A stretch of 58,523 nt of DNA, the filler included, from Sluysia triapertura (taxonomy: Eukaryota): assembly GCA_046118255.1 (NCBI GenBank). It is 4 parts of 4 records of this genome, joined end to end, with 100 filler letters (N's around TTAATTAATTAA, not from the genome) between each part and the next. Parts side by side here need not be neighbours in the genome. Positions count along the whole stretch, not along the records: positions 24,621 to 37,724 come from JBJNIA010051781.1; 3 more parts are not named here. One strand, 5' to 3'. The notes under the pieces are model-generated. The model worked only from the letters and a program-made list of their open reading frames with translations. It searched no databases and was not told the origin of the DNA. Every line of letters starts with the position of its first letter. The first letter of the stretch is position 1. The position numbers were made by a program, and so were the translations under genes. Shown in pieces: positions 13,805 through 51,862 of the stretch.

Positions 13805-14305
13805 AATTTGAACAAATTGATATAAAAAATAATTTGTCACATTTTTATGTATATATTAGCACCAAAAATAATAATCACAATTTAATAATAATAATCATCA
13901 TCATCATTTTAATAACAATAATATCAGCAATAATAGAAATAATGGTTTAACAATGATAAAAGTATGAATAATAATATTAACAACAACAATAATAATCATC
14001 TGAAATATTTTTATCGAAATGATCATATTTTTGTATTAGTTTCTCGCCATTTTTAAATAAACGATTCATTCAGAAAAATTTTTTTAAAATAATTCTTGTT
14101 TGAAATGAACAATGTAAAATAAATTTATGTAGCATAAATTTATGTAACATGCATTTAGAAATGTAATATATCGATGTTTATTAGTTGAATATATAAATAT
14201 ATAAATTAAAATTTTTTGCAAATCACTAAATATATTGAATTATGTTATTTTATATTTTTTAAATATTTTATAGTGAATATTGAAAGATTTATTGCCTTGT
14301 AGGTC

Positions 14306-15107: not shown

Positions 15108-15739
15108 GTAATAAATCAAAACATTTAAACAGAAAATTTCTACAGTTTAAATCATTAATGCTGTTTCTATACTATGTAGGATTAATTATTTGCTTGGCTT
15201 TATTTTAAATTTGCTCAAGCAAAGTATGAAAGCATCTGCTTATAGTAATTGTCTTACAGCGTTAATTAGTTACCATTAGAGGATATATTTAATTGAGTAG
15301 ATTTACACTTGAAATTTTGTATTAATTCTGGCAGAACTAAAGATATTTTAACTAAAATATCTATTTTGTCTTGTTTTTGTTTAACTGTAACTTAGTACGT
15401 CTTTTAATTCAACTATTTAGCAACAAATACGCATCATGCAAAATTTAGATTATAGAGAATTTATATTAATCTTGTAATAAATTTAAAGTTTATTTTCTAA
15501 TTATTCAAAAAAGGATCCGAAAATTCAGATTAATGAGGTTAGACTTGCGGTGCAAGCAATTTTCTAAAATTTATTCATATTAGCGATAATATAAAATAAT
15601 TTTGATCAGTGAAAGATTTTCTAGTTCTGAATTTTATAACTTGTTATTTACCAAATTTGGAACTTGTACCGATTTAAGAAAAATCAAAAATGAAAACTTG
15701 AAACACTTTTATGTACTCTAAAATCTTGTTTATAAGCCG

Positions 15740-16830
15740 TGTCTTACAATAATAATACATTAATTTATATTGCGCTCATATCTACTGCAAAATAAGTACT
15801 TAAAATAAATCTATCGTTTTTATTTTCGTATCTTATTAGACTCTTACTCCTATTCTTATTAAAGTTAGAACTCGGTGGCATCATAATTATTTGTTCTATT
15901 GCTTTGGAATCCTCTATCTCTTATTATTTCCTCTGTAATAATTATTTGAGTTATCCCTGTAATTACTTGAATTACTTCTGTAGTTATTTGAGTTACTTCT
16001 ATAATTGTTCGGATTACCTCTAAAATTATTCGAATTACATTGCCTCTATGTGGGCTATTACAGTTACTATCATTATGTCCTTCATAATTCTGGGAGTTAT
16101 ATTTATTATCATAATTATTTATATTTCTTCTTAATTTTGGACTTTTATCTCCTTTTATCTCATTGTCACTTATATAATCAATATTATTCTTATTCTTTTT
16201 ATACTTATAGGAACGTTCAATGCTTCTTAATTTCTTAATTACTTCTTTAAAGGGTTTCCTTCTATTAAGGTAACATATGCTATTAATTCTGGTCGTAATC
16301 CAGTTTTTAGTTTATCTATTAATGTTATTTCTTGTTTATATTCAGGGATTTTAGCTCTATCAACAAGGCTTTTAAGAGCACAAGCATATTCATATGCAGA
16401 TTCATTTAGTTTTTGTATTCTAGAGTTTAACATTTTGATATAATATTTACCAATGTCATCAAGTACTATTTCTTCTGTGAAGACGTTAACAAATTCATTC
16501 CAAGTCCGTTTATTATTATTACTTATTTCCTTATAGGTCTGGATCGCGACTCCAGTTAAATAATTTTGGATTCGTTTTATTTTTTTCGGTTTCATTTCAG
16601 CCGTTTGCTTCTGCTATGCTTTCATATTCAAATAAGAAATCGCAGAGATCTTCCTCTACTCCGTCAAATTTTTTTCATTTCGGGTAATACCATTATTGAA
16701 CACATTTCTTCGGCTAATTGAGCCATACATTCCTTAAAATCCTTAGATAAAGCCATATAATTTCTTAATTTTGATCTATAATCTTCGTAAAGTACAATTT
16801 GTTTATCTACTTTTCTTAAAACTTACTTAA
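15740..16830 (-). mobile_element. Ty3/gypsy-type gag remnant
   Basis: Reads FDGVEEDLCDFLFEYESIAEANG*..YLTGVAIQTY..TWNEFVNVF..RIQKLNESAYEYACALKSLV..KLKTGLRPEL (retrotransposon capsid). This is followed by an N/R-rich linker and a degenerate zinc-knuckle-like segment at about 15750-15800. Contains stops and frameshifts; no pol follows. Confidence 0.8.
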
Positions 16831-17036
16831 TCTATTAATAATCAACTTATGGAATAATAATTTTGCTTAAAATTAACTTATTCTTAATGAAATCGTAATT
16901 CAATTAGTCTAAAGCTTCTACTTAAATGCTTAAATCTTAATATTGATTCTTAAATTCTTTAATTTTATATTGTCAATATTGATTCTTAAATTCAATATTG
17001 ATTCTTAATCTTTGTCTTTATATTATTTCAATACTG

Positions 17037-17055
17037 GTCCTCTCTCTGGGCACCA
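17037..17055 (-). promoter_or_regulatory. Primer-binding site of the gag-bearing LTR element
   Basis: The minus strand reads TGGTGCCCAGAGAGAGGAC, complementary to a CCA-ending tRNA 3' end and resembling tRNA-Lys PBSs (TGGCGCCC..). It lies 10 nt inside the LTR end at 17066 and upstream of gag. Confidence 0.7.
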
Positions 17056-17065
17056 GTTTATTCTA

Positions 17066-17330
17066 TGTGGGAATTTAAAAGAATAAAGAGAGAGTCAAGT
17101 TATGGCTAGCCGTTGGATTTTTTGCAATTAAAAAGATTAATAATAGGACTTAATACTTGCATAAATGCGTGGTGAAGTTAAGTTAAAATTCTGGAGGTAT
17201 TTCAAATTTTAACTGAAAAAATAATAGTTAAATTATTTAAGTAGTTTTCGTAAATCCTATGAAAAGGATTTATAATAAATATATTTTACGTGATCAGAAC
17301 TAAATTATGATAAAGTTTTTGATACACGTG
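17066..17330 (-). repeat. LTR family B, 5' LTR of the gag element (far boundary not determined)
   Basis: Begins TGTGGGAAT on the plus strand, like 33176. Shares GCTAGCCGTTGG..TTTTTGCAAT.AAAAAGATT with the reverse complement of 51280-51320. Shares TTCTG.AGGTATTT and ATCCTATGAAAAGGAT.TATAA..ATTTTACGT with 33385-33545. Confidence 0.75.
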
Positions 17331-18529
17331 TGATTTTTTGATTTTGAAACTATGTAAATTATTTATTATACAAAATAACAAGACGTTTTTACTCTAATGT
17401 ATATTAATCAAAATTATAAAAAAAATTCAGTACTTATAATTTAAGGAATAAAATTGTTACATAGATTAACTACTGGAGTTAATTCTTTACTTTATAATAA
17501 ATTTTAAATTGATTTTTCGTTGGAACCGTTAAAAGGTTCCGTATATCTTTAAAATAGATTTTAGTCGATTTTGCGTACGATACTTATAAGTATTAAAACC
17601 TTACAAAAATAAACTAAATTACTCAATTTAAATAAAAAGGAATTTTCAATTAGTAGTGTTCCTTGAGAAGAGATATTGAAGGTTATGATTCCAAACGGAG
17701 AGAAGTTTGTAAACAGCAAAACACTGTTGAAATTTTTGAAACTCTTTTATTGTGTGTGTTGTAAAAAATTTTTCATGTATTTATGTGTTTTGTAGTGACG
17801 TTGAAGCCATTTAAAACAAAAATGAAAAAAATGGAATAATTTAGAACTATTATTTTATAAATTAATAATTACTTATGTTAGTTTATTTCCACAGATATTA
17901 ACAATTATAATAATCCACAAGTATTAAAGTAATTTGAAAAAATCGAAATCAATAATATTACAGAAATTACTAATAAATAATCAATATTAAAACAATTATG
18001 TCTGTTAAAATATGAACAATTATGTCTGCATAATAAATAATATCACGTATCTACACAAACAATAATCATATGTGTCATCATTATTCACATTACTATGAAT
18101 TCTGTATAGATTATTATGTTTTAATGAAATATTCATATTGGTTTCCAAATTGTTTATTATTTCTAAGAGATATTCAGGACTTCCGTAATGTAAGCACTTG
18201 TAAATTATTATGATTTTGAATTCTCTTCTTGCCTTTATTGCAACGAATTTACTTCTTTAAGATAAGGTGTTTTTTAAAGATATATTTCTTCCCACTTGGA
18301 GAATTAGTCGTGCAACTTGATTAATTTTTAATTGTAATTTTTTTACTTTTCTATATGAAATTGAGTACAATAAACCATTGTTAAAATCTGTGTTATACAA
18401 ATAAAAAAATAGAAAAATCAAAGAAAATTATGATGCAGCTTATGCTCGAGTAGTTGAAAAATAATAAGAAACGAAACTTTATTCAAAACCTTTAAAATCC
18501 TGAATTTTCGAATTCAAACTCTCACTTAT

Positions 18530-18985: not shown

Positions 18986-21160
18986 GTTTCTTTTAGTCAT
19001 TATTAAAACAAAGGATAAAATAAAATTTTAATATTAAAATGGAAATGTGTCTTATCTAAATAAAAAAATAGAAATTTTGCAAAAAAAGTCAATGCGGGTT
19101 ATATTAGTGGGCTTATATAACTTTATAATTTTTGTGCCTCGATGCTTAATTTAGTTAAGCTTTTTATATATCTTAAATTTAATTAAAGTTATATGCTACA
19201 TCGTGCAATTTTAAAATAAATTGTATAAGCTTAAAAGCTTATTTTTATAATTTAGTCTATTATTATATTTTATTCAAATTATTGTATATATATAATCTTA
19301 AATGAAGTAAAGGAATTTGAAATTGTTGCTCAAGAACCCTTATAACCTCAAACCTTAGAAATTTGAAAATGGAAGAAATATTTCCGAAAATATAGAAAAA
19401 CGAGAGAAAAAATTAGAATAACGTGAATGAGAATGGCATTTGCCATAATTAATTAGCTGGGAAAAGATCTACAAAAACACCGCATAAACTTAGTTATAAT
19501 GTAGAATAAAATGGAGGCCAATCTAAATTTAGCTGTAGCATATATAACTATAGAAAATAAATAAATAAAGCAAATAAAATATAACCAGAATTATAATATA
19601 AAATGTAATTAATTATTGTTTGGAGAAAATTGGCCACACAACATGTGGAATAAGAATAAAAATATATTTTATTGCAAAGTAATATTTTCTGTATGGTAAA
19701 GTTAATTACAGAGAAAAATTGATTCTGAAGAAGTTAGATTATAATCACAAAAATTTCTGTCTGTAATGTAATACCCGTAGAAAATACTGTAGAAGTGTGG
19801 TTGCCAACCTTTCACCTTTAATAAATTTTATTAAAACTTTTTCCTTAAAAAACGCAACATAACCAAAATCATATCTTTTTAACATCTTCACCCGTCAAAA
19901 TTCACACCTTACAAATCTATTTCATTTAACAAACTCATGCTGCAGATCATCTAACTGCCAGCACATTCTCAATTCACATTTTTATTTTAAATTACAAATA
20001 TATGTAAATATATGTAAGATTATGTATAATAAAAAAGAGATTTAAAGAAGAATATGTAACATAATTATGAAACTTAGATTATTTACAATAAAATAAAACA
20101 ATTTAAAAATAATGATAATAACACTGAACCTACGGCAATATAAAATTAACCATGGCCCGCTTACAGTAAACGACTTATGACGTAACTATAAATTAACAAA
20201 TCTTAATTTAAAATGTCTTTAGCTGAATGTTTTTCCTTTTACTTATGCAATTTAACTTGCATTGTTCCTTTAATAATTATTATTAGAGGGTCTTTTTAAA
20301 TTACAAATCCAAAATGCTTATGTTCAAGATGCACTATGTTACTTTACAAAATAAGTCAAACAACGAAAATATAACAAAACTTTTATTCTAAACAATGCAA
20401 ATTTATAATAAAAGAAAATCAGATACAGCAATAAAAATAAATTTAAAACTAAAACTTATTGAGGTATTTAATTTATAATAATAACGAATTTTAAAATTAT
20501 GTTTATCCCTCAATATATCGGGAAATAAAATGTATGAATTAAAATTTAAGTAGATTATTTTCAAAAAATTAATATCAACTTAAAAAATAACTCATGGAAT
20601 TGATAAATATAATAAACTAAATGGATTCCAATTGAGTGTTGTAGAATATGATTAACACTTTTCCAGATGGAATTGATGTTGATAAACTAAAAACATTCAA
20701 ACGACTAAAACCAAAATTGCTGCTAAGATTGTGAAAAATAACAATGGCTGAAAATATTGGCGACTTTGTGATTCAGCTATGGTTTTTTATGTAGGTTGAA
20801 AGGGGATAAAATTCAAGAATGCTCTAGAACATTGGTTTTTTAATGATTTTAGAGGGTTGTGATGACAATCCAACAGATGTGATTGTTTGTTACGCCATCG
20901 GATTACTTCGTCTGATTACTTGTTTTTACAGTTCCAAAAACTGATTTGGACCACTAAAAATAAAAATGTAATTAATAAAATTAGGCAACAAATAAAAGTA
21001 AAGTAATGTGTAAGATTTAGGTGATTACATATAAATGTGGTAAAAATAAAAAAGGATGTGAATAATGAAAAAATTTTAGGTGATAATGGTCAATGTGTAT
21101 AAGCAAAAACTGTTAGAATTAAAAATGAAATTTTATATATAATTGGCAAAATAATAATAT

Positions 21161-24520: not shown

Positions 24521-24620
24521 NNNNNNNNNNNNNNNNNNNNNNNNNNNNNNNNNNNNNNNNNNNNTTAATTAATTAANNNNNNNNNNNNNNNNNNNNNNNN
24601 NNNNNNNNNNNNNNNNNNNN
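24521..24620. other. Assembly gap spacer
   Basis: 44 N + TTAATTAATTAA + 44 N. Confidence 0.98.
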
Positions 24621-27299: not shown

Positions 27300-28520
27300 A
27301 TTAGTTTGTCCAGAAGAATGAGATGTAAAATGCCGAGTGGTAGGGAAAAATGATGAAATTTTCAAGAACAAAAGATAAGTGAAAATTGATTATTTAAAAT
27401 TTAGACTGTATCTATTGGTTTTGATAAAGATAAAACATAAGTAATGAGATTTAGTAAGATTAAGAATTTCCAAGGATCCATATAAGGAATGCTTGGAGTA
27501 AAATCGTATTATACGACAAGTTTGATGAGGAATAAAGTAAAAATTATTCACAAAAATTAGCTGTGTGGTCTGTGTTTATTAGTCTGATAATTAAAAGCTA
27601 AATTATCAAAAATTCTACAATGAAAACTTTTAATTTCATTATTTGTCTTTTTACTTTTAAAATTAACGAAAATAAAATTACTTTTAAAATTATATTTTCT
27701 TGAATTAATTTTATTTACCATTACGTTATTATACATTGAAGTCTTAAGAATTATGAGAAAATTATAAATTAGTTTAAAGGAACAAAAACAATTAATACAA
27801 TCTATGTTATACAAACTAATGATAAAAATCTTTTAAAGACGACGAAAACCTAAAAATTGATCCATAAAAATGATTTAAACGAAGTGTTTGTGAACAAAAC
27901 TAACTTGCTAACCTTTGGATCAGCCAGACTATCTTGGTAATAATTTTGTGTAAGCATTTTGTCTAAGCCGTAATGGTTGATAGTTCTCAAGACGAATTCA
28001 TAATTAGTAAATTCTTTATATTTCTTTTTGATACAAAGCATTTCATTGTGATCCGACACTCTATGTAACCGCATATTTTCTTTAATTGACATTGTTTTAT
28101 ACTTTGAATACAATTCTTAGCAATATTTCTTAACGTATATGAGAAACATTAATTAACAATTTCAGTTCTACAAGTGAAGCATACAAATTAATTACAAAGA
28201 ATAATGTTAGATTATAATTTGAAGAGTTTTAATTTGTTTTTTTTGTGAATAAAACTTTAGCATTACGTTTAGTAGTTCGTATGATTACGAGTTTGATTAA
28301 TGGTATTGTTTTCAATTTAATACTTACTGCAATATCATAATGTTCGTTAAGAATATTAAGAGCAAACATATCTAGTTTTATAACTTTTTGAATAGTAACA
28401 TTATATTTAAAAACTACTAAGTCTTCCAATAAAATCCGATCTTACATCAAAAATACTTTAAACTATGCCCCATATAATAACATTCGATTTCCTGAATGAG
28501 ACAGAATTTCCATTGGGGAT
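27300..28520 (-). mobile_element. Tentative decayed protein-primed DNA polymerase B remnant
   Basis: LYGSLEILNLTKSHYLCF (about 27435-27490) resembles the Polinton polB motif IYVGFSILELSKLHMY and is followed by GATACAG (DT, possibly an eroded DTDS). Upstream lies VTIQKVIKL..TTKRNAKVLF. Many stops. Confidence 0.3.
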
Positions 28521-32860: not shown

Positions 32861-33175
32861 AAAATAAAGAATTAACAGAAATAATTAAAAAGTTACATCT
32901 GTTTATCTAAATTAGTAAATAAATAATAAATGCAAAAAATAAATACTTACAATTGATTTTAGAAATTAAGTAATTAATTTGAATATTCACAAATGCTGAA
33001 TTGGAAGAAACTGTATATGAACTCAATTTATAAGAAAAATGCTCACAAAAAACTTCTCAAGACTTTATGCTAGAATTTTGCGATTATTCTTGACGAGATT
33101 ATGTCCATTATGTCAAATAGGCACAGTTCAATATTTTGAGGGAATCACTTTTAAACGATACGGTTCAATTACAAG

Positions 33176-34200
33176 TGTGGGAATATGTAGAGATAAGATA
33201 GAATAAAGTAGAATTTTAATGTGAGTCCACCAATGTACTAGGCTTACCAGTTAGGGTTAGCTGTTGAATTTGTAGATAAAAGATTTTTAAGTAAAAGTTA
33301 GAATAACTTTCTAAAGCGTGCGTGGTTTTACTAGGGTATTCTTGGCTTAATGAATTTGCTGTTAATTTAGTAAATCAGACTAAGTTCTGAAGGTATTTTT
33401 AATAAATGAAAATCAATACAAACTGTTTCTAGTATTAGTAATAAAGATAAATATCTAACTGCAGAAATATTAATAGAAATAATTTACATAGTAATTTACG
33501 AAGATCCTATGAAAAGGATCTATAAAAGTGATTTTACGTTATAAGAATTAAATTCTAATAGATGAAAGCTTTACTCCAGTGGGAATTTTATAATTAAAAC
33601 TATAAAATTTAATAATGAAAAAATGAATTCTTAGAAATTTTTATTAGACACTGGATAAATTAAACAAGATTATAAATATAATAAAATAAATAAGTTAATT
33701 TGAATTAATCAAATTTAATTCTCAAATTGGTGATATTTTATTAATTAGTTTACGAAAAATCTATTATAAGATTTTTAGAAATAATTACGAAAGTGATTTT
33801 GAGTTTATTTTTTCGAGGATATATATTGTATATCCGTAACTTAATATAATAAACTAACGTATTTATTAAAAACAGGAATTTAGTAAAAACCTTCTTAGCA
33901 GGAATCCTTTAAAATTAATTTCTCTGGTTACTTCGCTGAGAAAAGCTCGATGAAGATTCGATTAACAAGGCCTTGTTAAAAATTATGTTTTCAATATTGT
34001 GCTAACAAAATTGAGTGTTATTTAATAAATCTTGCAACTATTTATAGTCGATTTAGCTGGCCTTGGCCAGATCAAAACAAAATATTTTATTTAATTTACT
34101 AAAACAAGATTTTTAAAGATATTAAAATAGTTTAAAATTTTACGTATAATTAATATAATTACTTACGTTAGTTTACATTAAGAATAATAATAATCCAAAA
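33176..34200 (-). repeat. LTR family B, probable 3' LTR of the protease-protease-membrane element (inner boundary approximate)
   Basis: Terminus TGTGGGAAT. GTGAGTCCACCAATGTACTAGGCTTACCAGTTAGG nearly matches the reverse complement of about 51316-51350. Blocks are shared with 17066-17330. There is a minus-strand TATA-like CTATAAATAG at about 34038-34047. Confidence 0.65.
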
Positions 34201-34369
34201 AATTAATTCGATAAATTAATCCGATCAAAAACAAAATTATAAATCAATAAATTGTGAATAATCAATAAATAGTTTTACAGTATGTGTACAATATGTATGT
34301 ATCAATATGTATAAAAATCAATAATTTGTTAAATTGTCACAAAATGTATGTTCATAACATATAGCATTT

Positions 34370-37300
34370 GTTAAATTATTACAATATGTATGTTCATTAC
34401 AGTAATATTCATAATACTACATTTTGAAGTATATTCAAAACTAAATTTAGTTGTCTTACTTAATGATTTCGTAATTACGGGAACAAAAATATCATACAGC
34501 CCAAAATGTGACCACTGGTTCAACATAACACAAATTTCTCTGCTACGTAAAATAGAAATCTAAATAATTGGTAAAATTGAGTTTGTGACATAATGTAAAA
34601 GTATACTCGAATTTGGGGGCAATCGAGCAAAACGATGGCTGCTCATTTCTAAGTAATTCAGAAGTACAACATGACGTTCTAATGGATTGTTTAGTCGTAC
34701 TTTGTTATTATGTAGTCTTATAGCCGATATCGGACATGTAGAAAATTTAGACTCGTCTTTATTGTGAAATAACGAACGTATACTAATTTTGCATCATCTA
34801 CTAATAGTGTTAGAGTGACAGTAACATTAAATGACTGATTCTCGAACAAGTCATAACACGAGACGCTCCAACGACTGTGAAATCTATTAGTGGAATTAGT
34901 AAATTTACACCATTTACCGATACAACATTCTAATTGGGTGTTACTTAGTCTATTATTACGTAGTACGATTTTGGTGTATGTTTCCTGTCGATCAGCTCTT
35001 ACACTAACTTGAGGTTGGATATTATGAAAATATCTATAGTGGTATTCGTTCGAAGGATGTCTAAAAGAATCAGTGTGGAAATACATACCAAAGAAATACA
35101 AGTTAATAAAGTTTATTGTAGTTGAGTCATCTGGACTCCCTGAAGAAATGGACTATAGTTGTTCAATGCATACTTATAATGTGGTGATGAAATTGAATAA
35201 GGCTCCAATGGTAATTGAGAATCAAAATGATAAGGTATCGAATAATGACCATTATCTGTATTAGAATGAAAATTGGTAGGAGTGTCTTTGTTTCGAGTGA
35301 AAATACAAATTACCAATAAAAAGATTACCAACACCAGAATAATAATTATTGTAAAGATTATCAGAAATATTGCAAAAGGATGATTTTTAAGAATTTCGAT
35401 GATATTAATATTTGTACTCCTTCCCTTAATTGAAAAGTGCAACTGTTCTATGTATTTATCGTTTAAATGAACGCGAGCAATCATGTGTCAATCTTCACAT
35501 GGTAATAAATCTGAACAAATCGTAAAAGAATGTATTATATTATTTATAAGTAATTCATGAATTATCCAAACACTGAAATTAAGTCTCGCCGGTAGGAGAC
35601 AAGCAAATTTTGCACAAATATTATTGTATAGAATCTTAACTCTTACTTCACTATCTAAATTATGAAATTCGAAATATTCTGACCTAAAAGTTTGTTCACA
35701 GTTAGCTGATGAAATCATTATGATTAAAACTAATAAATGTAGCAATTTCTTATTAGCTAATAATTTTACATTTCGCCCAACTGTAAAGATGTAGTATAAT
35801 GTCCATAATACATAACATATAATAAACACTAATCATAAGAAAGTAACCTTACTTATTAACTTATATTCCGTTAAAGAGTATTTTACTTAATGAATTATTA
35901 CTAAGAGTTTTAGTCTAGATCTCAGGAGATTTTGAAACAGTTGTATGACCCTTAAGAGACTGGTAAAAGTCCTCCACGAAAGATTTATCGTGAATGTCTA
36001 CTAAAGAAAGTGTTATTGACATAATGAAGGCATTAGTAATGGTTTAAGATAGATACAATATATCAGTAATGAATGTTTAGGAATTTCCATCATAGGATTT
36101 ATTGTCCAATATTGATTGTAAAAATTTTTAAGTATAACTGTTTGTTCAACACCATATCGTAATGCATTTCTAGTATTTCGCAGTTAATCTTCGATTTCAG
36201 CTACATATGTAAAACCCGTAATTCTAATACATAATAGCAGAATTAAGAAAAGTAAACTTAAAACAGTGAGTGATTTTATCCTGAATGTTGTATCTCTATT
36301 ACGTGTTGAAAACAGCATTATATTCGGATGATCGGATACAATTCCTGAAGAAACAGATGTTACATCTGAATTATCTATATTATCTGATGAAGATTCGGAT
36401 GTCAGGTCTGGTGTAGGAACAACTGGTAGATGTATATGATGTGGAGTAATGTGTGGTGCTATAAAATCATGTACTACAACCAGTGTTTGATTTGGTTGAA
36501 CGTCTACAGGTTGAGGTCAGATTATACGTGAGCCTACTGGTAATATCACAAATCCGTGTCTACTATGAATTACTATATCTTCTAAGTGTTTAATTACAAC
36601 TAAACCTACAATTATTTCATAAGGACATTTATCCCATACTAATATTGGAATACAAACATTCGTATCTAAGATTGTAATTTGACATTGCAGTACTCCATTT
36701 ATGTCAATGGGAGTGTAATTGACATTATAGGGAATTAATGCTGGTTGATGCATCATAGAAATTTCTAAAGTACTTAACATAATGTAATTAACGATAGAGT
36801 TACTTGCACCAGTATCAATAACGGCTCTTATCCATCTACGATTTATTTGAACGCTTTGCATTATGTGATTAATTAAATTTAAATTCAGTGACGAGTTTAG
36901 TATCATAATTATTTGTTTTGCAGTATGTGATTTATCTCCATTTTTTAATGTAACCTTGTCAAAGTCAAAAATAAAACCTTTAAGCTGTGATAACATCCAT
37001 TCCCACAATCATAACTTCGGCGCAATTTCTCATAACATTTAGTTTTGTTTCAAATTTATTTTTTCCTAATTCACATTGAACTTTTATTACTCCTGCTATT
37101 TTTATAGCATCTCCTGTTACGCCTGCGAGATTGGAAACATGGTCCTTTAAATTTTGAAGTTCTTCACTTGTTAAGGAAGATTCATTTATTAAAGAAGCTA
37201 CCGCTCTTGTGTCAATTAGAGCTGAAATTATTCGACCATTAATTCTTATTTTAACCATTGGTCTTTTCGCACCGTAATAGTTATAGTCACATAAACTAGA

Positions 37301-37503
37301 TTCTTTGGCTGTGAATGTATAAAATGGGTAAAATTGGAATAAATTGGAATTGAATATAAAAGAGGTTTAATGTCTTTTAGTTCTTCTTTACTTTCTTCGA
37401 CATCTTCTGTGCTTTCTTCCTGAACTTCGTTATTTTGATTCGTATTTGTGTTTAGTATTGTTTGTAATAAAATGTTTTCACTAATGTTTGTACATTCCTT
37501 TTT
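34370..37503 (-). pseudogene. Decayed retroelement polyprotein: two tandem retropepsin domains followed by multiple signal/TM segments and small beta-rich domains; no RT/RNase H/integrase
   Basis: PR1 reads RPMVKIRINGRIISALIDTRAVASLI..MIVGMDVI and PR2 reads VQINRRWIRAVIDTGASNSIV..IIVGLVVI. Coding-like sequence continues through isolated stops and frameshifts: a P/S/D-rich linker, LTVLSLLFLILLLC, LLHLLVLIIMISSANC, FAIFLIIFTIIIILVLVIFLLVICIF, and ORFs 35488-35829, 35113-35484 and 34718-35101. Confidence 0.75.
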
Positions 37504-37724
37504 TGTTGCATTTGCTGTGGTTTTTCTAACACTAAACTTACGGCAAAATATTTTTTAGCAGGGTTCGGTTACAGTAAGCGTTTTACAACGTATCGTTGGC
37601 ACTCCTCTAACTAATAAGTTAAAGATTACTTAAAAATAATGTCTCTACTAAATAAATTAACTTAGGAGGGTCTTCAACTACTAAATAAACTCAATAATTT
37701 ACTAATTAATTAACACGAAAAATC
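37504..37724 (+). repeat. Repeat family C copy inserted at the 5' side of the polyprotein, truncated by the gap
   Basis: TGTTGCATTTGCTGTGGTTTTTCTAACACTAAACTTACGGCAAAATA matches the motif at 5700, 44695 and 56231. Confidence 0.55.
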
Positions 37725-37824
37725 NNNNNNNNNNNNNNNNNNNNNNNNNNNNNNNNNNNNNNNNNNNNTTAATTAATTAANNNNNNNNNNNNNNNNNNNN
37801 NNNNNNNNNNNNNNNNNNNNNNNN
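37725..37824. other. Assembly gap spacer
   Basis: 44 N + TTAATTAATTAA + 44 N. Confidence 0.98.
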
Positions 37825-37971
37825 CACACACACGAACAATACAGATTCATTTACCATTCGTATTCTCATAAACTTATATCACATTAATCTCCTTTACAGA
37901 ATCTACATGCACGATATTGTAAATAATAATATTTTTAAGTAATAAATGTGTAAATAATATGGATTTTTAAT

Positions 37972-38170
37972 ACTTAGAATGATGAAATTGAATATGATAG
38001 CTATGAAAGAGAAGAATCTAGAAGTAAATTTGAAATGTCTGTAGAATGATTTGTGTGAGAATAAGAACCTTAAACATTTTTCATTAGAAAATTGAGTATG
38101 AAAAACTGAAAATCAATTAAATTCTGAAAACAAAAATTAAATTTATTATTTTTCTGTATGTTAACAATAC
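37972..38170 (+). repeat. Dispersed repeat family E (second copy at about 54393-54590)
   Basis: Shared TACTTAGAATGATG..AATTGAATATGA..GAATCT.GAAGT.AATTTGA..TGAGAATAAGAA.CTTAAACATT.TTCA..TGTATGTTAACA. Confidence 0.75.
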
Positions 38171-39036
38171 TAAGTAATTTAAGGTTGACAATATTATGAA
38201 ATTCAATTAAGATTATTAAAAATTTATTTACTTTATTAAAATTTAATTTTATCTTACAAAATTGAAAATTAAGTTTATATTTTGTTATTATCTTCATCAA
38301 ATACAATGTTTTCAGTTTATTCAAAAGGAACAACAATTTGTACACGGAAAACGATTTATTTATATTACTAAAACTAAAAATGTTAATGTTTGTAAAATTT
38401 AATTTTTGAATATGCCTCCTTCTGATAAAAAGATAAAATTAATTTATCATCATTATAATTATATTCAATGTTTACTTTAATGTTGTTAGGATGAAGTTCA
38501 TCTGATCGTAGAGCTGCGAATTGTTGGTAGTAGCTTTGATATCTTTTGTATATGAATATAATGTTGGAGAAAAATTATTAAGATCTACCAATAAGTCATC
38601 TATTCTGCTGTAGTTTGTCATGAAAACTGTTGGATCGATTCCAAGCTCTTTAAATTCATTGATTGAGTGAAATTACTTACATTTTGTAGCATATCTTGTG
38701 CACTTTTCATTCTGAATTGCCGTTTTGTAATGTATTTTAAAGTTTGTTGAACTATAACTAATTCTATGACGATAAACATGAACATTTTCTGCAACATTGA
38801 AATTGAAATTCATAACAATATCTTCGAAATCTAATACTCTGCTAGTAAACGGATGAACGAACATGTTATGCGCATTACTTGATTCGGAAAGGTTCACGTT
38901 TTCCTTTTGTTTTTGGCGAAGCGTTCGTGGTTTCGAGCATATTGCCAGCTACACCAGCATTGTGTAAACTTTTATCATGTTTTATGTACAATGAAACCAA
39001 TAAACATTATATTCACCAACTTTACGGAAATGTGTT

Positions 39037-42000
39037 TTGAGTAATTTAACAGTAAATGAGTCTTACAATAGAAAAAGAGCTACATATTGGTTTAAAAAAT
39101 TATCAAATTGTTTTATGGAAGAGGATAAAACTGAGTTAAACATTTCTATTAATGATGAAAAACTCATTTTTAATTTTAAAGATTGTTTTAAAAATATACC
39201 TTTACTCTTGGATTCACTCGAAGAAAATCAAACTCATATTATTATTCCTATGCTTAAGCTATTTAATCATGTTATATCAGACTTTGAATCAGGACGATTA
39301 TCTCATCATTGGATTTATATTTTGCTTATTCGTAGTTTTATGCATGATAGTATTATTATTAAAAAATGGAGTTTTTGCGAGTTTTTAAAATTAGGAAAAT
39401 TGTTAATTTTAGAACCACATAATAAATTCGTTAATTTATTTTCGCTTATGATTAATACAACGGTTTTGTATTGTTCAACCGATTCTATTAATGATAAAAC
39501 CGGTTTTTTTGTTACAAAATTAATGGTTACTTTTCTAAATGTAATTTTCCAACAATTAAATACGCCAAATTCAGATATTGTATTTCTTTTTTTACATCGA
39601 TTAACTGAAATTCAATGGAATTCACAAGCCTTATTATATTTTTCAGAATCATTTTATCAAATTGATATAAATATTCATTTGCCATTTTTTGTATTACAAC
39701 AACTATTACGAATTTGTCGAATTAATTTTGATACGTTACACATTATATATCGGCAATGTATAGTTTCGTTTTTCTTGGGAAGATTTTTACATCTTAACAA
39801 TATCAATGAAGATCATTTATTGAATTTTATCAATTTGATTGTATATGAAATTGATTTTTCTAATTCAATACTGACAGATAAGATATTATTATCACAAATA
39901 AAAAATCTATATCAAAATTGGACATATGAAATCGATTTTATGAAAGAAATTAATAATTTGAATATTAGTATTGATGACAATGATAGATTGGATAATGGTA
40001 CATTGACTCATGTGTATTTTTTAATGAATATGATAAGTTTAACTGGTTTTAAAATGATATTAAATTCAATAACTGTAATAGTTAATTCATATGGACCGTA
40101 TTCAAACAATTTAGAAGTTTTAAAATGGATTATAGTATTACACAAAATGAAAATTATTAAAAATAATCTATATGAAGAAGAGATTAATATTTGTATACGA
40201 AATTGTTTAAAAAATATATTTCAATGTTTATCAATTGAAATCGAATTAAATTACCAAAATAAACATCAGCAGCATATTGAGCGAGTTTTGAATAATTTGA
40301 AATATTTTCTAAGCCAATTTCCATCAGAATCGGTAAATATTTTTCGAAATTGTAAAAATTCAATATTAAAAGTATTGATTGTTAATTATGTAAATGAACA
40401 AGTATTAGAATCTAATGTAACTACGGATTATTGTTTAAATGAATTGAAACAGTTAAATTTTTATCAATTATGGGATTTAGAAATATTACTATTTCATGCT
40501 AAATTAATAAAATCTGGAAGATGCATTATAACGAATTTATTGAGACAATTTATTGATTTAGTAATTGATTGTTTAGATAAATCCAATTCAAATAGTTTGA
40601 TTAATCTATTTTATTATCTGAAGCAGTTTTACAAGTTATTGATAGTAGTAGTAGTAGTAATGATAATTTAATGAATTGTAAAATTTTATTAAAACGTACT
40701 TGGTCTAATGTGAAAGAAGAATTGAAAAATAATCAAAAATTTTGGTTGATTTTTGAGCAGTTTTTAAAAAGTATTTTTCTGAAAATCTTAATACTAATAT
40801 CATCATCAACTGAACAACAATTTAAAGATGATATTATTGAAATATCAAATGAGATATTTGTGTTAGGTGATAAAAAATTAGGCTTAGTTGGTTTATATGG
40901 TCAAATAATATTTGAATTTTTAATAGAAAATCAATTCGAATGTATTAATAGTAGCAGCGGATTTAAAAGAGAGTTTTTGTTAGAAACTATATCCTTAATA
41001 ACTATTTATAATTCATGTTTCCGTAATCGAAATACTTTGAAATACATTGCTAAAACTGGACGATATTTAGATGAAAAATATAATTGTACTGATCGTTGGA
41101 TGATGATGAAATTTGTTGAAACTTCTGAACGTGCTATTGGTATTTTATTAATTGCTCATAAAGAATTTAAACAATATATTGAACTAATAAGTATATTTTA
41201 TAAATTAGATAATAAATTAAATTCAAATACGAAAAAAATTAAAAGTTACAATAACAACAAAATTTATCGTGAAAGGAATCGTATTTTTACTAATTTATTG
41301 ATCGTAGTTTTTATTGGTTGTCAAAGAAATATGTTAACTGATTTTAATTTACAAGTTTGTTTTGATTGGATGATAAATATAATACAAAATGAAACGTTTA
41401 CATCATTACGTCATTGGGCAGAATGGATTTTATTGATTATAATAAAATTTGATTTGAAATTAAATAATAAATTAAATTTTTTGATAAATTTAATTGAAGA
41501 TCTTAAAGATTCTAAACCAGCTTATGTAAGTTCATTATTAATAATAATAAAACATACTTTCAAATTTATAAAATATGATGAAAGTAAATTAAAGCGTTTA
41601 TTTTATTTAATATTGCCATTAATTTCGGCGCAAAATTATAATATTCGTTTATATTCGTGCTGCTTTTTAATCGAACTGTCCAAATTAATCAATTGTTCAA
41701 CAATAGAACAAATAATGTCTAATTATGAATCATTTTTAAATCGTTCTGTTACCAAACGTAATGTTCTGAAATTATCGAATAATTTCTGGTGGACTGATTT
41801 CGAATATCAATTAGATTTTAACTTGGAAATGATTTATGATTATGTGCAAAATTATTTTGATATTGTTTCAGAGGAATTAATTTGCTGCAAACATTTCGAA
41901 AATAAGTTAAATAGTGGATTTTTGCTAAATAAAATCGATGATTTTCTTGTATCATTTCGAGCAGATTCGAGTAGGTTAAACTTGATGCATGACAAAGTTT

Positions 42001-43126
42001 GGAGAGTTAAATTTGAAATAGATTTTGAAGATGATAATAATAATAATAATAGTGATGTAAATAATGATTTTCAAAAGAAAATCCAGCCATGGCTAATAAA
42101 ACGTCCAGATGAATATGAAATTGAAGAATTAATTAATTCTATTAATAACAAACATATAGAAAATAATCAAAATAATAATTTGAATTTGATATTAGTGTGT
42201 TCGTTATTATCAAAAGCAACTAATATTGGTGGTTTAATGAGGTCTAGTAATGCTTTTGGTGTTCGACAAATTGTAGTGGATAATTTATTGATTTTACAAG
42301 ATAATAATTTCAAGCAATTGTCAGTAACGGCAGAAAAATGGATGAATATTATTGAAGTTCGTCATTATGATTTGGAGAATTATTTGAAAGATATGAAATT
42401 GAATGGTTATCAAATTGTTGGTATTGAACAAACGGGCCAAAGTGTTTCCTTGGAATCGGTTACTTTCCAGAAAAATTCTGTTTTTGTATTAGGGTTAGTG
42501 AAATTTTTTATTTTATACGATTTAGTAATTGCAAAGTGTGTAACGGCACAACTTGATAGGCGTGTTGAATGTTTATTATATTTTATCCTAATAATAAAAT
42601 TACTCAACAGTTTGCGTAACAAAATTTTCAATACATTGGAAAAAATGCAACACATTTGAAAAGATAAAATGTAAATATTAAAAGCTATGAAGAAGCCACC
42701 GCATTTTGTAATGTTAACGGTGATACAAAGGGACTAGTAACCTTTAATCATTACAAACTATTTCTGGAATAATTGAAATTGAATCAGAAAATCATATTAA
42801 GAAACTACAAGAAAACCCAAAAAGTTACAAAGACATAATTAAAAATTTAAATTTTTTTATTTGAATACCAGGTTGTAATAGGTTTTATATTTTAAATAAA
42901 ATCAATTTCTTAATATTTTAATCATAAATAATTTAATCAAATCATTTATTTTAGTAATGAACGAGAAGGTATACCAGTTCATTTGATTAATCAATTGGAT
43001 GTTTGTATAGAAATTCCACAAATTGGTCAAATTCGATCTCTTAATGTACATGTTTCAGGTGCAATTCTTATGTGGGAGTATATGAAACAAATGTATTTTG
43101 ACACAAGAGCAAATAATAACATTTAG
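39037..43126 (+). CDS. TARBP1: TARBP1/Trm3 tRNA (guanosine-18) 2'-O-methyltransferase; 5'-incomplete; one frame break at 40605-40671; intron 42494-42954; last exon 42955-43126
   Basis: Long helical N-terminal region starting with RKRATY, then DFQKKIQPW. The SpoU domain reads [46 protein letters not shown]|[36 protein letters not shown], and the GT-AG intron restores LGNE in frame. Confidence 0.92.
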
Positions 43127-43503
43127 TATTTTATTATTAATACCTTCCAGTTTTTTGGATTTGTTTTTGAAGTTTATTTGAATAAATTTATCTTGGTTTT
43201 AATATTTTTGATACATTTTTCACATTTAAAAGCGTTGATGTTAAGTAATAACCAGTAATTTTTAATTAAAAATCGGAATTCTAAAATATGCAATAATTTT
43301 TTTGAATTGTTTAAATATGTATTGTTTAGGTGACTAAAAATAGTAATACGTTTCACATATTTGCACGACAAATTTTAAAACTTAATTGCAATATTAAAAT
43401 TTTAATAATTTTTTTAGTAATAATAGTTTTCATAAATTTTTGTTAATTTAATATTTTTGGTAGTATTAAAAATTTTAAAAGTAATTAATTCAATTTCGAA
43501 AAC

Positions 43504-43900
43504 ATGGCAACAACTAAAATAAATGAAGAAATTCAGAGTTTTGAACTGAACATGAAAGAAATGCAAAAATGCATTGAAAATCATAAAATACTGTTAAGTC
43601 AGTTTAGTGAGAATGAAAATGTTCTACAAGAGCTAAATCTTCTTAATAACAACAATACAATTTATAAATTAATTGGTCCAGTTTTAGTCAAGCAAGATTT
43701 AGATGATGCCAAGAATACAGTTAAAAGTCGCTTGGAGTATATAAATACTGAGAAGTAATTTCATTTAAATATTATTTAAAATTTTTAGAAAAAATTTGGA
43801 AGATAAAATTAAATTGTTAAAAGAAAAGGAAGTGCAAATTAGACTCAATTTAAGTAAGTATCAGACGGAAATGTCTCAAACGCAAATTAAAGCATCGTGA
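43504..43900 (+). CDS. PFDN6: Prefoldin subunit 6 (beta type); exons 43504-43754 and 43789-43900
   Basis: SQFSENENVLQEL..IYKLIGPVLVKQDLDDAKNTVKSRLEYI. A 34-nt GT-AG intron gives the in-frame end KKNLEDKIKLLKEKEVQIR..IKAS*. Confidence 0.95.
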
Positions 43901-46900
43901 ATTGTTTTTAATATAATTTGAGGTTTAATTTTTTCTTGTTCAGAAGTATTTTAAATAATATGTCTTAATTTTAATCGTTTTGATGCAATTAATTTTAAGA
44001 CTGCTGCGTACTTCATAATCAGATTGTAGTTGAATGAGTATTATTTTGTACTTTGAGTTTATTGTCCTGAAAATTATTATAAACATCAAAAATTAAATTC
44101 CAAGCTATGCTTATTTAAAAACATTAATCCATCTCATAATATTTTAATGTGTACTAATTAGAATATTTTCAAAAATGTAAAAGTTTTCAAGAACCTAAGT
44201 TTTTCTTTAATTTAACTTAAACCAGCAGAGCCAAATTTTTTATTAGATAAACAATTTGTCGATTTAATAACTTACTAGGTATATTTCACTAAGACACGAA
44301 AAAAATTTACAAGTCTATCATTTAGATTTTTTAGAATGTAAAAAAATATTTTATTTTTATATCGACGCTCTCCCGGCTTTATCCGGCGTTGATCAGATCA
44401 AAGTTAACGGTTTCAAAGAATTAAAAGTAAATATTTGATAAAGTTTAGAATTGCATTAGGTTCACGAATAATCTTAATAATTATTAAAAAGCACAGTCTA
44501 CGTTTAAAGTTTGATAAACTTATTCTAATTTATTTATAAGCGACAAATTTTATTAGATAATAAAACAATACATAAGTTGAGCTTTCACCGTCAAGAATTG
44601 AATAAGGAATGTGTCTTCGTAAAGAAATTCAATTTCCGTTTTTTTCGGCGATATGTTAATTCGCAAAAGCCAATTTTAAACTTAGATGGATTTGCTGTGA
44701 TTTTTCTTAATACTAAACCTATGGCAAAATAAAATTGGGCAGGGTCCAGCGTCTTACAACTATTAGTTGGCACATCTGTAACTTATAAGTGAAAAATCTT
44801 ACTTAACTTGCTTAAAAATGTTAAGAGGGTCTTAAAATATCACAATGAATAAAAACTCAGTTAAATCCGTGAAATTTATTAAATTAATTATACAAATGTT
44901 ATTACAAATGAACTAGAATAAAAAATAAAAGTGAAACGTAATAGGAAAATATGTATGTTACGATCTAAATCCTCTTGGGATATTCGATCAAATGGTAGTG
45001 TAAAGGATAATTTTATGTTTTTATGTGTAAATTTTGTTATATGTTTTATCCTTAAAATTAATATTATTATAAAATTTTTAATAATTAAATAAAGTTTTTA
45101 AAATGAATTTAAATAAAATTTCTAATTTTAATAACAAAATTAAAAATAATAATTAATAATTTTAAAGTATCAAAAAATTCATTTGTTTAAATACTGGAAA
45201 ATTCTTGAAAATATTTTTGTTTATATCTATCAGAAGCCATATTGCAAAAATATTTCTATAAATAGGTAAGCTTTATATAAAATTTTCACAACGAATTTTT
45301 AGATAGCAGATAGTCAAATTTTGGATTTTAGATTTAGAATCGAAGATTTTAGGAAAAAAGATTTAAAAATTTAGAGACGAAGACCTTAAGAAAAAATATC
45401 ATTTGAAGAATCGACTTATTCAATTTCCATGTTACAAAAGTAATTTTTTATCATATAAGTTACTGTATCACCTTAAACAGGGATACCTAAATTTTAACTT
45501 AAATTAAAAGTAATTATTTTTATCAATACCTTAATAAAGGATTGAGAAATTTTTATCTAAAATTTACTTTACTATTAACATAGGGTTAAATTGTTAATTT
45601 TCTTATTATTATTATACAAATTTATTTTTTGTACGCGTTTAGTTTTCTTTTTATATAATAAACCTTTAGAGGTTTTGACGAATTTTGTTTTTAAAACTTG
45701 AGTAAATTGTACAATTAGACAAAGCCTTAAAATTATTTTATTTAACAACACCTTAATCCAGAGAAGGGTTGTGTAAAATCCTAAAATAACATTTTTTATA
45801 CAACATCTCATTAAGGGAGTTGTGTAATCTATTTTTATCCAACAACACCTTAATAAAAGGGTTGTGAAACCTAATTAAAATATAACGACTCAGATAGTCG
45901 AGTTAAGTTTTATCTAATTGTATTTAAATTTCGATTTAGTGTGAGTTAAACATTAAATATATAATTTAAGTGTAGTAATTCGAACTAGTTAATTAGACTT
46001 CAAGTTAAGTTTTAATATTTTCAAAACCTAAAACTACGTCTCCAAGTTTTGTGTAAAACGTATATATTAGGCGAACTAGCAATTTTGTTATTCAATATTT
46101 CGTTATGACAAGGTTAAATATACTTGTTTAATTTATATAATCTTTTTCATTAATTTAATGTAAGAACATAACATATTGTACAATTTCCGAGGAACTCCAC
46201 ATTTTGACTTTCTCATTTGATTAAAACTATTTGTTTAATTTCTTTTAATTAATATTCAACCATTCTGTTGCATTATTTGAATAAGTATTATATTAAAAGC
46301 AGCATATTTTTGTTGCGACTAAAACTATTTAAGAAAATAATTTGTTTTGAACTTAGGGATTTCTGTTGAATGATCAGTTCTGCCTCAAACCGATACACCG
46401 CTGATAATTGTAAAAATGTAGTTTCATTCATTGGTGATTATAAAACCTTCATACTGTTTCATAGTCAATTTTTTTTAAATTTAATTCAGTATAAAAATTA
46501 GATGAAATATATTTGAATTATATGATTTTTAAGTTGTTTATATCTTGAACAATTCTAATTTCTAGGTTGTATAAAGTCTATATAGTTCAAAGTCAGTTAA
46601 TATTTCAAAATTGAATTTACATTTTTGAAATATTAATATTTCAGTCTATAACAAAATTTTCTTTTATGATTTTTAATTGGTTTTGAATATACATTTTGTA
46701 TGATTAGTGTTTTTGAATATTTTGTTTCAAGTATAATTACTAATAATAAAGGCTCGGTAATAAAACCACGGAAGTGTTTAATTACTGAAAAATGCGATAT
46801 AATCTTTTACAGTGAAGTATTTTAATATAATTTATATTTTTATTTTAGGAAGATATTATTTTACCAAAATATTGTAAATTAATCGATAGTAATTGTATAA

Positions 46901-51279: not shown

Positions 51280-51402
51280 TTAATCTTTTTGATTGCAAAA
51301 ACCCAACGGCTAGTCCTAACTGGTAAGCCTAGTACGTTGGTGGACTCACGTTAAAATCCTATTTTATTCTAAGAATCTTATTTCACAATATATTCTCTCA
51401 CA
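51280..51402 (+). repeat. LTR family B copy (3' end), opposite orientation to 17066 and 33176
   Basis: CCCAACGGCTAGTCCTAACTGGTAAGCCTAGTACGTTGGTGGACTCAC, ending ..CTCACA. Confidence 0.75.
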
Positions 51403-51862
51403 AAATAACATTAAATTAAATCAAATCAAGTACATTAAATTTTTATTCGAATTTTAAACGTTTAACTTTAATTACGAACTTTTATTAATTTTCTTTAAAA
51501 ATTTCAAACCTTTACTAATCATTTTATTTGTAGTGTCTCTTTTTATAGTAAATCCTTTTAACTCGTGTCATTAAATACTGGAATGTGAATTTTTACAATT
51601 TTGAATTTGTAAATTCATTCACTGAAAGAATCAAAGACTTAGTTTAAAGTTTATTAATACCAAATGATGTAATATGCATCGCTTTGATTAATAAATATTA
51701 TAAATATATGGCCGCAAGTAATTTTATAATTTAGTAACAGTATTAAAATTAATTTTATTTTACTATATTTATTTGATTTATATATTTATAATTTTATATA
51801 TTTACACACTCGATATTCAACTTAAAAAATCGTTTCGATAATGGTTCCAAATTTAATTGTAC

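Follow-up and report, generated by a model that had tools for sequence, protein, structure and literature searches.

The window, meaning the whole 58,523-nucleotide stretch of joined Sluysia triapertura sequence that was analysed, contains at positions 37503-34470 of the minus strand a decayed coding region that reads linker, retropepsin 1 (PR1), retropepsin 2 (PR2), linker and signal/transmembrane (TM) modules with ectodomains of approximately 100 aa each, followed by a 3' long terminal repeat (LTR). The locus is the decayed back end of an LTR retrotransposon in an animal genome, with two retropepsins and small membrane proteins. Its features, and those that truncate it, are as follows.

37725..37824, no strand: gap (N44, a 12-nt linker and N44), following the contig end and the family C repeat
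37502..37724, no strand: family C repeat, a separate element that interrupts the open reading frame (ORF) and reaches the contig end (nhmmer, alignment)
37268..37503, minus: KKEC and an N/E-rich acidic linker, with one frame switch inside
36950..37267, minus: PR1 (Pfam RVP, E 3e-9; Atlas retropepsin clusters, 0.94-0.95)
36520..36860, minus: PR2, starting about 27 aa past the end of PR1, motif DTGAS
36274..36519, minus: P/H/S/D-rich linker, which keeps the PR2 frame beyond a TGA at 36519
35785..36273, minus: membrane module 1, with a signal-like segment (36273-36214), ectodomain E1 and a TM segment (about 35845-35785)
35116..35745, minus: membrane module 2, with a signal-like segment (35745-35698), ectodomain E2, a TM segment (35376-35296) and a 60-aa tail
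34528..35112, minus: module 3, with a signal-like segment (35112-35053), ectodomain E3 and then a Cys-rich region, E4, reaching the LTR
33176..34532, minus: 3' LTR of about 1.3 kb, with a CCCACA end at 33176

Because the family C repeat and the gap cut the element, its gag and all of its 5' sequence are unseen; upstream of the ORF, about 220 nt of contig are left. Other family C copies were located in the window by nhmmer at 44685-44842 (E 3e-13) and 20119-20185 (E 1.5e-4), and the window holds no further internal copies of the element. The original prediction described coding-like sequence broken by isolated stops and frameshifts, and this was borne out. The best reading path on the minus strand of 37503-34370 cost 16 (10 stops, 4 frameshifts), compared with 46.4±4.3 (minimum 36) for 100 Markov shuffles and 47.5 for the plus strand, and a hand-traced path crossed 8 in-frame stops and switched frame 6 times. 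A single reading path, showing no indication of introns, connects PR2 with the boundary of the LTR. The predicted order from linker through both proteases, second linker and membrane region to LTR was recovered by Pfam protease matches, hydropathy and LTR homology. KKEC is present at the start of the acidic linker, as four residues that are too few for a zinc-knuckle assignment. The order KKEC, acidic run, LYSI and protease presumably resembles a gag-protease junction; the linker may be the end of gag, or it may be a post-integrase tail.

The retropepsin expected of a Ty3/gypsy element was found here as two domains, which align without gaps at 30% identity over 90 aa. The catalytic motif of PR1 is altered to DTRA in this copy, and a frame switch near 36980 sits within the C-terminal part of this domain and not at the domain junction. 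PR2 matched the Pfam families gag-asp_proteas (E 1.1e-4, short of the curated threshold) and Asp_protease (E 2.3e-4). The linker that follows PR2 is 82 aa long, and the TGA at 36519 is the single stop that separates PR2 from the first hydrophobic segment, with the frame unchanged; a TAA comes next at 36186. Word-seeded searches among longer proteins recovered neither the PR1+PR2 profile (0/868) nor the read-through from PR2 to E1 (0/2221 candidates).

An exhaustive phmmer search, in which the query was the 668-aa frame-0 read-through excluding PR1, E3 and E4, returned one match among 1.84 billion proteins (E 1.3e-4), which arose through summed protease matches. This sole match, hereafter P0003, is an unnamed 2855-aa polyprotein in ENA, a singleton cluster and an intact protein of Ty3/gypsy type. 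It carries a fusion protein of gB/chuvirus type at its N terminus (about 680 aa; PF24664, E 1.6e-84), three proteases and an intact reverse transcriptase (RT)-RNase H-integrase. One protease follows the integrase, the tail of which ends about 40 aa before it, and leads into a signal-ectodomain-TM-tail module. The assumption of one protease per element of this kind is therefore not upheld. Like the element, P0003 has several retropepsins in a gypsy-type polyprotein and, at its C terminus, a protease followed after roughly 165-185 aa by a signal, a small ectodomain, a TM segment and a cytosolic tail; protease motif and signal segment are 185 aa apart in the element and 165 aa apart in P0003. Unlike the element, P0003 possesses RT-RNase H-integrase and the fusion protein, its proteases are not adjacent, and it has one membrane module and not three. 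Its proteases are only 23-31% identical to PR1 and PR2. Since P0003 has multiple proteases, protease-to-membrane continuity and pol, the first two are compatible with the third. The original prediction had also taken the continuity of PR2 with the membrane region as an argument against a random deletion junction. The continuity itself, in the same frame across the TGA, stood, but the argument did not, because P0003 indicates that such continuity can be inherited.

The membrane cassette contains four strongly hydrophobic segments on the reading path; a fifth (35745-35698) is shorter, signal-like, called by eye and under threshold. E1 is about 110 aa and broken, and module 1 has hydropathy maxima of 2.44 and 2.24. 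In module 2 (hydropathy 3.82), E2 comprises 100 aa with 4 Cys and 1 sequon, and the tail bears one Yxx-hydrophobic motif. E3 comprises 107 aa with 4 Cys and 3 sequons and is predicted to be all-beta; E4 comprises 59 aa, and module 3 retains no clear TM anchor. The ectodomains may be internally repeated, as is weakly supported by their alignments: 0/1000 shuffles aligned as well as E1b-E2 locally, and p was 0.008 for E2-E3 (global) and 0.02 for E1-E2 (local), values taken from 10 pairs each tested two ways. Leave-one-out HMMs recovered neither any left-out ectodomain nor the P0003 domain. Global comparison with the latter gave p 0.02 for E2 and p 0.38 for E3, hhalign of the cassette with the P0003 module gave a probability of 0.1, and a word-seeded search with P0003 residues 2280-2855 among shorter proteins found 0/7281.

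The cassette had been called an envelope, a description that was not upheld, as the ectodomains are of about 100 aa and matched no F-type or gB-type fusogen. Pfam detected no fusogen family in six frames of the window or in the ectodomains, while the same library detects PF24664 in P0003, and the P0003 env gave no tblastn match in the window. Accessory cargo is the more likely identity of the cassette than an envelope fusogen. No relatives were detected among retroelement proteins; Atlas gave no usable match for E3, PDB sequence searches with the cassette gave 0 matches and 1 chance match, and NCBIfam gave generic membrane and clan AA rows only. A likeness to the fibronectin type III (FN3) or Ig-like fold, a seven-stranded beta-sandwich, was spotted by eye as a motif. 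Its pattern occurs 19 times in six frames of the window, 2 of these in E2 and E3, and the ectodomains had no Pfam fn3 match and no PDB profile match. The AlphaFold model of module 2 was unusable (pLDDT 49). Fold searches were run on the E3 model only (7 strands, pLDDT 50), and their results do not make the fold new: Foldseek against the PDB returned nothing at E 0.001 or better, and the best match in VIA (Z 6.9, rmsd 2.6, 79 aligned) lies in a range the tool calls common. A weak structural lead for the cassette points to small viral proteins.

The LTR was confirmed to end at 33176, with a CACA end common to three copies (33176, 17066 and about 51402). Its start was misplaced at 34370 and lies instead near 34470-34532, the candidates being a TGTG at 34532, which follows a purine-rich run, and the start of homology at about 34470. 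Of the TG...CA termini, the 3' CA is thus present in three copies and the TGTG is a candidate 5' start. Positions 34465-33449 are collinear with 18190-17204 (score 318, compared with 105±24 and a maximum of 160 for 56 other window segments). This second LTR belongs to a sibling insertion with the following features.

17066..18190, minus: sibling 5' LTR, a separate insertion, 60% identical over 1068 columns
17038..17055, minus: sibling primer-binding site, 18 nt starting TGG, 10 nt past the LTR end
16242..16613, minus: sibling gag piece (Pfam Retrotrans_gag, 1.2e-4, below cut-off), broken and cut off near 15865

The primer-binding site resembles, we assume, the 3' end of elongator tRNA-Met. Matches of the sibling gag to PPR were rejected as summed repeat artefacts, and tblastn found no pol after this gag in the window. 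The other two LTRs are not recent siblings, being only 60% and about 78-82% identical. The probable Ty3/gypsy assignment draws on the sibling Retrotrans_gag match and on P0003. Troyka, which is defined by CG...CG LTR termini (PMC12440569), was rejected, as the LTR ends in CA.

The original prediction had named an independent LTR insertion, with its own target-site duplication (TSD), as an outcome that would undermine it. No TSD was found at TG sites in 34200-34900, around the candidate starts, and the nearest approach was a one-mismatch 5-mer at 34668, within the coding region. No primer site was found after the 3' LTR. The lack of a TSD supports the LTR at 33176 being the element's own 3' LTR. 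It also bears on a chimera, in which an LTR-element protease fragment is fused to captured host or viral membrane-protein sequence and the LTR is an unrelated later insertion. Such an origin would suit a cassette without detectable relatives among retroelement proteins, and the weak lead to small viral proteins, but we regard it as quite improbable given the one reading path from PR2 to the LTR boundary, the lack of a TSD and the purine-rich run before the TGTG.

RT and integrase are absent over the 3.1 kb visible between the LTR and the cut. A six-frame Pfam scan of 33176-37722 for RT, RNase H and integrase returned protease families only, plus one chance row (E 0.06), and all 5 tblastn matches of P0003 in the whole window were proteases. 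The predicted lack of RT, RNase H and integrase therefore applies to 33176-37722 and not to the element as a whole, the 5' half of which is cut off; an original pol could have been placed between the two proteases or ahead of PR1 on its 5' side. All six flank comparisons intended to place pol were non-significant, among them those of the acidic linker with three pre-protease flanks of P0003 (p 0.35-0.97), and no integrase-tail remnant was found in the 80 aa or so that precede PR1 (p 0.97).

We consider the most likely reading, with a probability of about 0.4, to be that the element is a pol-less, helper-dependent derivative of a multi-protease Ty3/gypsy-type lineage. In its favour, six frames hold no trace of pol, and the junction linkers are short and lie on one reading path. 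The order around KKEC would suit a gag-protease junction, and clean chance loss of pol was rare in the toy deletion model described below. An integrase tail of the P0003 type appears to be absent upstream of PR1, the LTR family looks to be real, tRNA-primed and gag-bearing in this genome, and pol-less families known elsewhere, namely TelKA2n (PMC5408684), TR-GAG (PMC4350172) and grouse LTR-gag-env-LTR elements (PMC10820513), offer possible analogies. Against it, the window holds one copy with internal sequence, for which gag is unseen, and no autonomous helper with pol. The bipartite system originally proposed, which requires several copies and a helper, was accordingly not sustained within the window.

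The protease comparisons also weigh against a pol-less element, as they may be read as pointing to an autonomous P0003-like one, ordered pol-linker-PR-PR-cassette-LTR, with RT-RNase H-integrase 5' of PR1 behind the repeat and gap. Its post-integrase proteases would free the membrane cassette from Pol. The best P0003 match of PR1 is the post-integrase protease (31% identity, z 20.9; pre-RT protease z 15.1), which in P0003 likewise precedes a signal-ectodomain-TM-tail module at a similar motif-to-signal distance. When aligned with this protease, both PR1 and PR2 have the same Cys ahead of the C-terminal hydrophobic-Gly motif, and PR2 also has its Trp in front of the catalytic strand. The contig ends just upstream, and no deletion needs to be assumed. 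Nevertheless, PR2 scores about alike against the pre-RT protease (z 12.8) and the post-integrase one (z 13.4), a five-sequence tree leaves placement unsettled (support 16/44), KKEC with the acidic run would fit the end of gag, and the sequence upstream of PR1 lacks an integrase-tail remnant. We hold an upstream pol to be possible, if on balance unlikely.

Deletion derivatives are common, and this copy might have lost RT-RNase H-integrase in a one-off event from an autonomous gag-PR-PR-pol-cassette or gag-PR-pol-PR-cassette element, with no replicating pol-less family. The order PR-[pol]-PR-membrane has its collinear counterpart in P0003, and the reading path switches frame close to where PR1 and PR2 meet. 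However, that switch, near 36980, is inside PR1, and a motif after PR2 resembling the P0003 post-protease region was non-significant (p 0.875). In a toy deletion model that uses P0003 coordinates and assumes a P0003-like parent, 4.1% of the random deletions removing the RT and integrase cores left at most 90 aa in frame, and trace-free in-frame removal made up 0.2% of all deletions. Clean in-frame loss of pol by chance is unlikely under this model, and a one-off deletion is, in our estimation, an unlikely origin of this copy.

If the element is a pol-less derivative, the dead genomic copy would be the last 4.3 kb, at the 3' end, of an LTR element of Ty3/gypsy type that was non-autonomous and came from a lineage with polyproteins combining several retropepsins with a C-terminal cassette of small membrane proteins. 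Gag would lie directly upstream of the acidic linker, and pol would have been lost cleanly before the last copying rounds of the element. A host tRNA would prime the element RNA, which Pol of an autonomous relative would reverse-transcribe and integrate. PR1 and PR2 would cleave the cytosolic portion of the polyprotein, while internal signal and TM segments would thread the remainder into the ER, where signal peptidase would free about three small glycoproteins, their ectodomains being some 100 aa long. An accessory surface role (adhesion, sorting or host modulation) would be likelier for these than fusion, because P0003 has such a module besides its separate gB/chuvirus-type fusion protein.

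In the literature searched, no multi-protease and membrane-cassette layout of this kind was found. Errantiviruses, surveyed with GAG-ENV-POL forms of nematodes, bryozoans and flatworms (PMC13524379), are similarly Ty3/gypsy-type LTR elements with membrane glycoprotein genes, and LTRs of 1-1.4 kb occur in supplement rows of that survey. Unlike the element, they have full RT and integrase by the paper's criteria and F- or gB-type fusogens, neither of which env types the cassette matches by sequence; the only mention of "protease" in the paper concerns a single PRO domain. Because full RT and integrase were required, the survey would miss pol-less forms. TelKA2n, a non-autonomous LTR family of the rotifer Adineta vaga, likewise lacks most of pol and keeps an env-like membrane gene in an invertebrate, but has lost part of gag, and the env of the TelKA clade is of paramyxovirus F type; the available text of this source (PMC5408684) discusses microhomology-mediated partial copies and makes no mention of tandem proteases. 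TR-GAG of plants, for which mobilisation in trans is proposed (PMC4350172), and the alpharetroviral LTR-gag-env-LTR ERVs of grouse (PMC10820513) are also pol-less with coding capacity kept. The former has gag only and the latter a retroviral env, and both lack two proteases and a multi-module cassette. Lack of pol is by itself less new, because rotifers, plants and birds are already known to have helper-dependent LTR families.

On every surviving reading, the element and P0003 point to a kind of LTR element in which two or three retropepsins are combined with small membrane proteins that are not fusogens, arranged as a C-terminal cassette. Accessory membrane genes mark complex viruses, and their presence in invertebrate retrotransposons therefore bears on retrotransposon infectiousness. 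A stronger claim, which we think doubtful, is that the element was under selection and replicated as the pol-less partner of a two-component system. Such a partner would have given up RT and integrase and kept two ancient paralogous retropepsins adjacent, possibly folded like pepsin into a single-chain pseudo-dimer. Its small glycoproteins, an array with internal repetition that signal peptidase releases and that is unlike known env, would be delivered to particles of an undescribed autonomous multi-protease Ty3/gypsy lineage. It is an old idea that single-chain pepsins derive from fused retropepsin dimers, and adjacent proteases such as PR1 and PR2 would offer a natural test of this origin.

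A reading path could be traced along the minus strand from 37503 to 34370 at a cost of 16, for 10 stops and 4 frameshifts, whereas 100 shuffles cost 46.4 ± 4.3 (minimum, 36) and the plus strand cost 47.5. These values identify the stretch as decayed coding sequence, in agreement with the original prediction. The two retropepsins claimed for it, PR1 (36950-37267) and PR2 (36520-36860), matched Pfam RVP (3e-9) and gag-asp_proteas (1.1e-4), respectively, and gave a gapless alignment with each other (30% over 90 aa). The catalytic motif of PR1 is altered in the copy analysed. Since a frame switch at ~36980 falls within the C-terminal part of PR1, the proteases probably lie adjacent in one path, ~27 aa apart. 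PR2 continues in the same frame to the first hydrophobic segment, across a TGA at 36519 and an 82-aa P/H/S/D-rich linker. It is close to certain that the element is the remnant of an LTR element carrying two real retropepsins; what was noticed is thus both genuine and out of the ordinary. In its workings, the element resembles a Ty3/gypsy LTR element to which a membrane cassette has been added, and its membership of that family is putative.

The segment 34465-33449 was collinear with 18190-17204 (score of 318, against 105 ± 24 and a maximum of 160 for 56 control segments), and a CACA terminus was common to the ends at 33176, 17066, and ~51402. The copy at 17066 is followed by 10 nt, an 18-nt primer site, and then gag (Retrotrans_gag, 1.2e-4), which marks it as a 5' LTR from a related family. 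The copy at 33176 starts at 34532 (TGTG behind a purine-rich run) or at ~34470, and coding sequence reaches this start. With this coding sequence before it, no primer site after it, and no target-site duplication at it, this copy is the element's own 3' LTR, as claimed at the outset, and the alternative of an independent insertion with its own target-site duplication finds no support.

Families of RT, RNase H, and integrase were absent from a six-frame Pfam scan of the element, from 17 of the 19 window ORFs of at least 100 aa (all except 38070-38438 and 42410-42733), and from all of the 103 ORFs of 58 to 99 aa outside the element. An intact gypsy polyprotein, used as a query against the whole window, matched the two proteases only. 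The claimed absence of pol domains was therefore borne out for the visible part of the element. On the 5' side, the ORF is broken at 37502 by a family C repeat (37502-37724), which extends to the contig end at 37724 and has two more copies in the window (44685-44842 and 20119-20185), so that the element can be read from the acidic linker onward. On the minus strand, two of the family C copies have an identical terminus, CAGCAAAT.CA, which may be a further LTR end. The gaps at 11282-11381, 24521-24620, and 37725-37824 each consist of N44, a 12-nt all-frame-stop linker, and N44, and the adjoining contigs are perhaps not contiguous in the genome. We take KKEC, the acidic run, and LYSI to resemble a gag-protease junction.

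When 1.84 billion proteins were searched exhaustively, one match was obtained (E value of 1.3e-4), P0003, an unnamed singleton of 2855 aa. Its order is signal, gB/chuvirus-type fusion protein, TM, PR, C2H2 fingers, PR, RT, RNase H, integrase, PR, signal, ectodomain, stalk, TM, and tail; the final module (signal-ectodomain-stalk-TM-tail; type I) was read from sequence. P0003 is distant from the element (proteases at 23-31%) and was retrieved because several protease matches sum. The acidic-linker stretch matched none of its three pre-protease flanks, and profile alignment detected no homology between the cassette and its final module. The combination of three retropepsins with an intact pol in P0003 contradicts the premise of a single protease per element. 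Moreover, such an element ordinarily can end, at its C terminus, in a protease that leads into a membrane module, so the continuity of PR2 with the membrane region, which had been taken to argue against a random deletion junction, is uninformative on the position of pol.

PR1 scored best against the post-integrase protease of P0003 (z score of 20.9), followed by the pre-RT protease of P0003 (15.1) and PR2 (13.1); a five-sequence protease tree placed PR1 and PR2 without resolution. By this ranking, PR1 and PR2 are not recent mutual duplicates, and the window could hold the tail of an autonomous element with pol upstream of PR1, for which no loss would be required if integrase lay upstream. However, the integrase tail of P0003 stops ~40 aa before the last protease, and none was seen in the ~80 aa before PR1. 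We regard an upstream pol as somewhat less likely than the main reading. The main reading, to which we give a probability of about 0.4, is a pol-less non-autonomous derivative. If gag lay directly upstream, pol would have been lost without trace and in frame. In a toy model on P0003 coordinates, such traceless, in-frame loss made up 4.1% of random deletions removing the RT and integrase cores, which makes a loss filtered by selection, in a non-autonomous form that replicates, more plausible than a one-off deletion of pol. The latter is accordingly improbable, and a chimera is more doubtful still. The bipartite system originally proposed, with the element as its pol-less partner, is one among three live readings.

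Excerpts of PMC13524379 describe Ty3/gypsy elements from across the animals with env of the F and gB types, GAG-ENV-POL orders included, in a survey that required full RT and integrase for inclusion; one protease is mentioned in them, and further supplements could hold multi-protease sequences. The available portion of PMC5408684 describes TelKA2n, a non-autonomous family that is without most of pol and retains an env-like ORF, as well as small ORF3s that carry a TM and have no clear homology to env. In parts of their respective sources, TR-GAG elements have gag only and are thought to move in trans (PMC4350172), grouse ERVs have the layout LTR-gag-env-LTR (PMC10820513), and Tor env is dealt with (PMC4402516). 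Troyka, as defined in an extract of PMC12440569, does not fit the element. No description of the P0003 layout was found in the literature searched, and searches for duplicated, additional, or post-integrase retrotransposon proteases brought up none of the element's layout, as judged from titles and abstract starts in a collection with few subscription papers, reports in Repbase, or supplements to preprints.

Hydropathy and the traced path divide the membrane cassette, with its ectodomains E1 to E4, as follows.

Module 1: signal-like segment, E1 (~110 aa), TM
Module 2: signal-like segment (by eye), E2 (100 aa, 4 Cys), TM, 60-aa tail
Module 3: signal-like segment, E3 (107 aa, 4 Cys, 3 sequons), E4 (59 aa, 5 Cys)

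From this topology and general membrane biology, signal peptidase would be expected to cut the polyprotein into small type I membrane proteins. Among curated families, the fusogens of Pfam included, the cassette had no match; nor did it match any PDB sequence, and E3, searched alone, matched no Atlas cluster. The label "envelope" is therefore not upheld, and the cassette likely differs from known fusogens; by env homology, the element is not an errantivirus. The size of the cassette and the separate fusogen of P0003 suggest that it may be accessory cargo. The E3 model (34730-35050, minus strand) has seven beta strands at a pLDDT of 50, and its matches to PDB folds were unremarkable. In the viral library, the best row for this weak model was an unnamed 152-aa protein, A0A894ZXT3 (E value of 0.01, TM of 0.66), and row 4 was protein 4 of Northern cereal mosaic virus, a plant rhabdovirus (probability of 0.90, TM of 0.46); these model-based matches may serve as a lead only. 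Pair tests of the ectodomains (E1b-E2, 0/1000 shuffles; E2-E3, P = 0.008) hint that E1 to E3 may be ancient repeats. FN3-like spacing was seen by eye; leave-one-out profiles recovered none of the domains left out, and both likenesses are tentative.

The window is AT-rich (~24% GC), its genes indicate an animal host, and it contains the following other features.

9432-9958, plus strand: STT3-like (oligosaccharyltransferase) pieces (Pfam, 8e-12 and 2e-3), degenerate in appearance and perhaps a pseudogene
14303-15125, plus strand: AAA ATPase
28232-28441, minus strand: BICC1-type (Bicaudal-C-type) KH domain
39004-43123, plus strand: long-exon gene with a SpoU methylase at its end, presumably TARBP1-like
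43489-43755, plus strand: prefoldin subunit

Directly downstream of the AAA ATPase exons sits the 5' half of the related LTR element (15865-18190, minus strand), cut off at ~15865, with a broken gag that includes an N/R-rich 21-nt repeat. A third LTR in the group is represented by its 3' end (51282-51402, plus strand), which is ~78-82% identical to 33175-33285 and has no primer site after it. Dispersed repeats, 73-84% identical, link 12327-12731, 13575-13740, and 58001-58384; 37960-38169 and 54382-54591; and 51827-51999 and 53045-53221.
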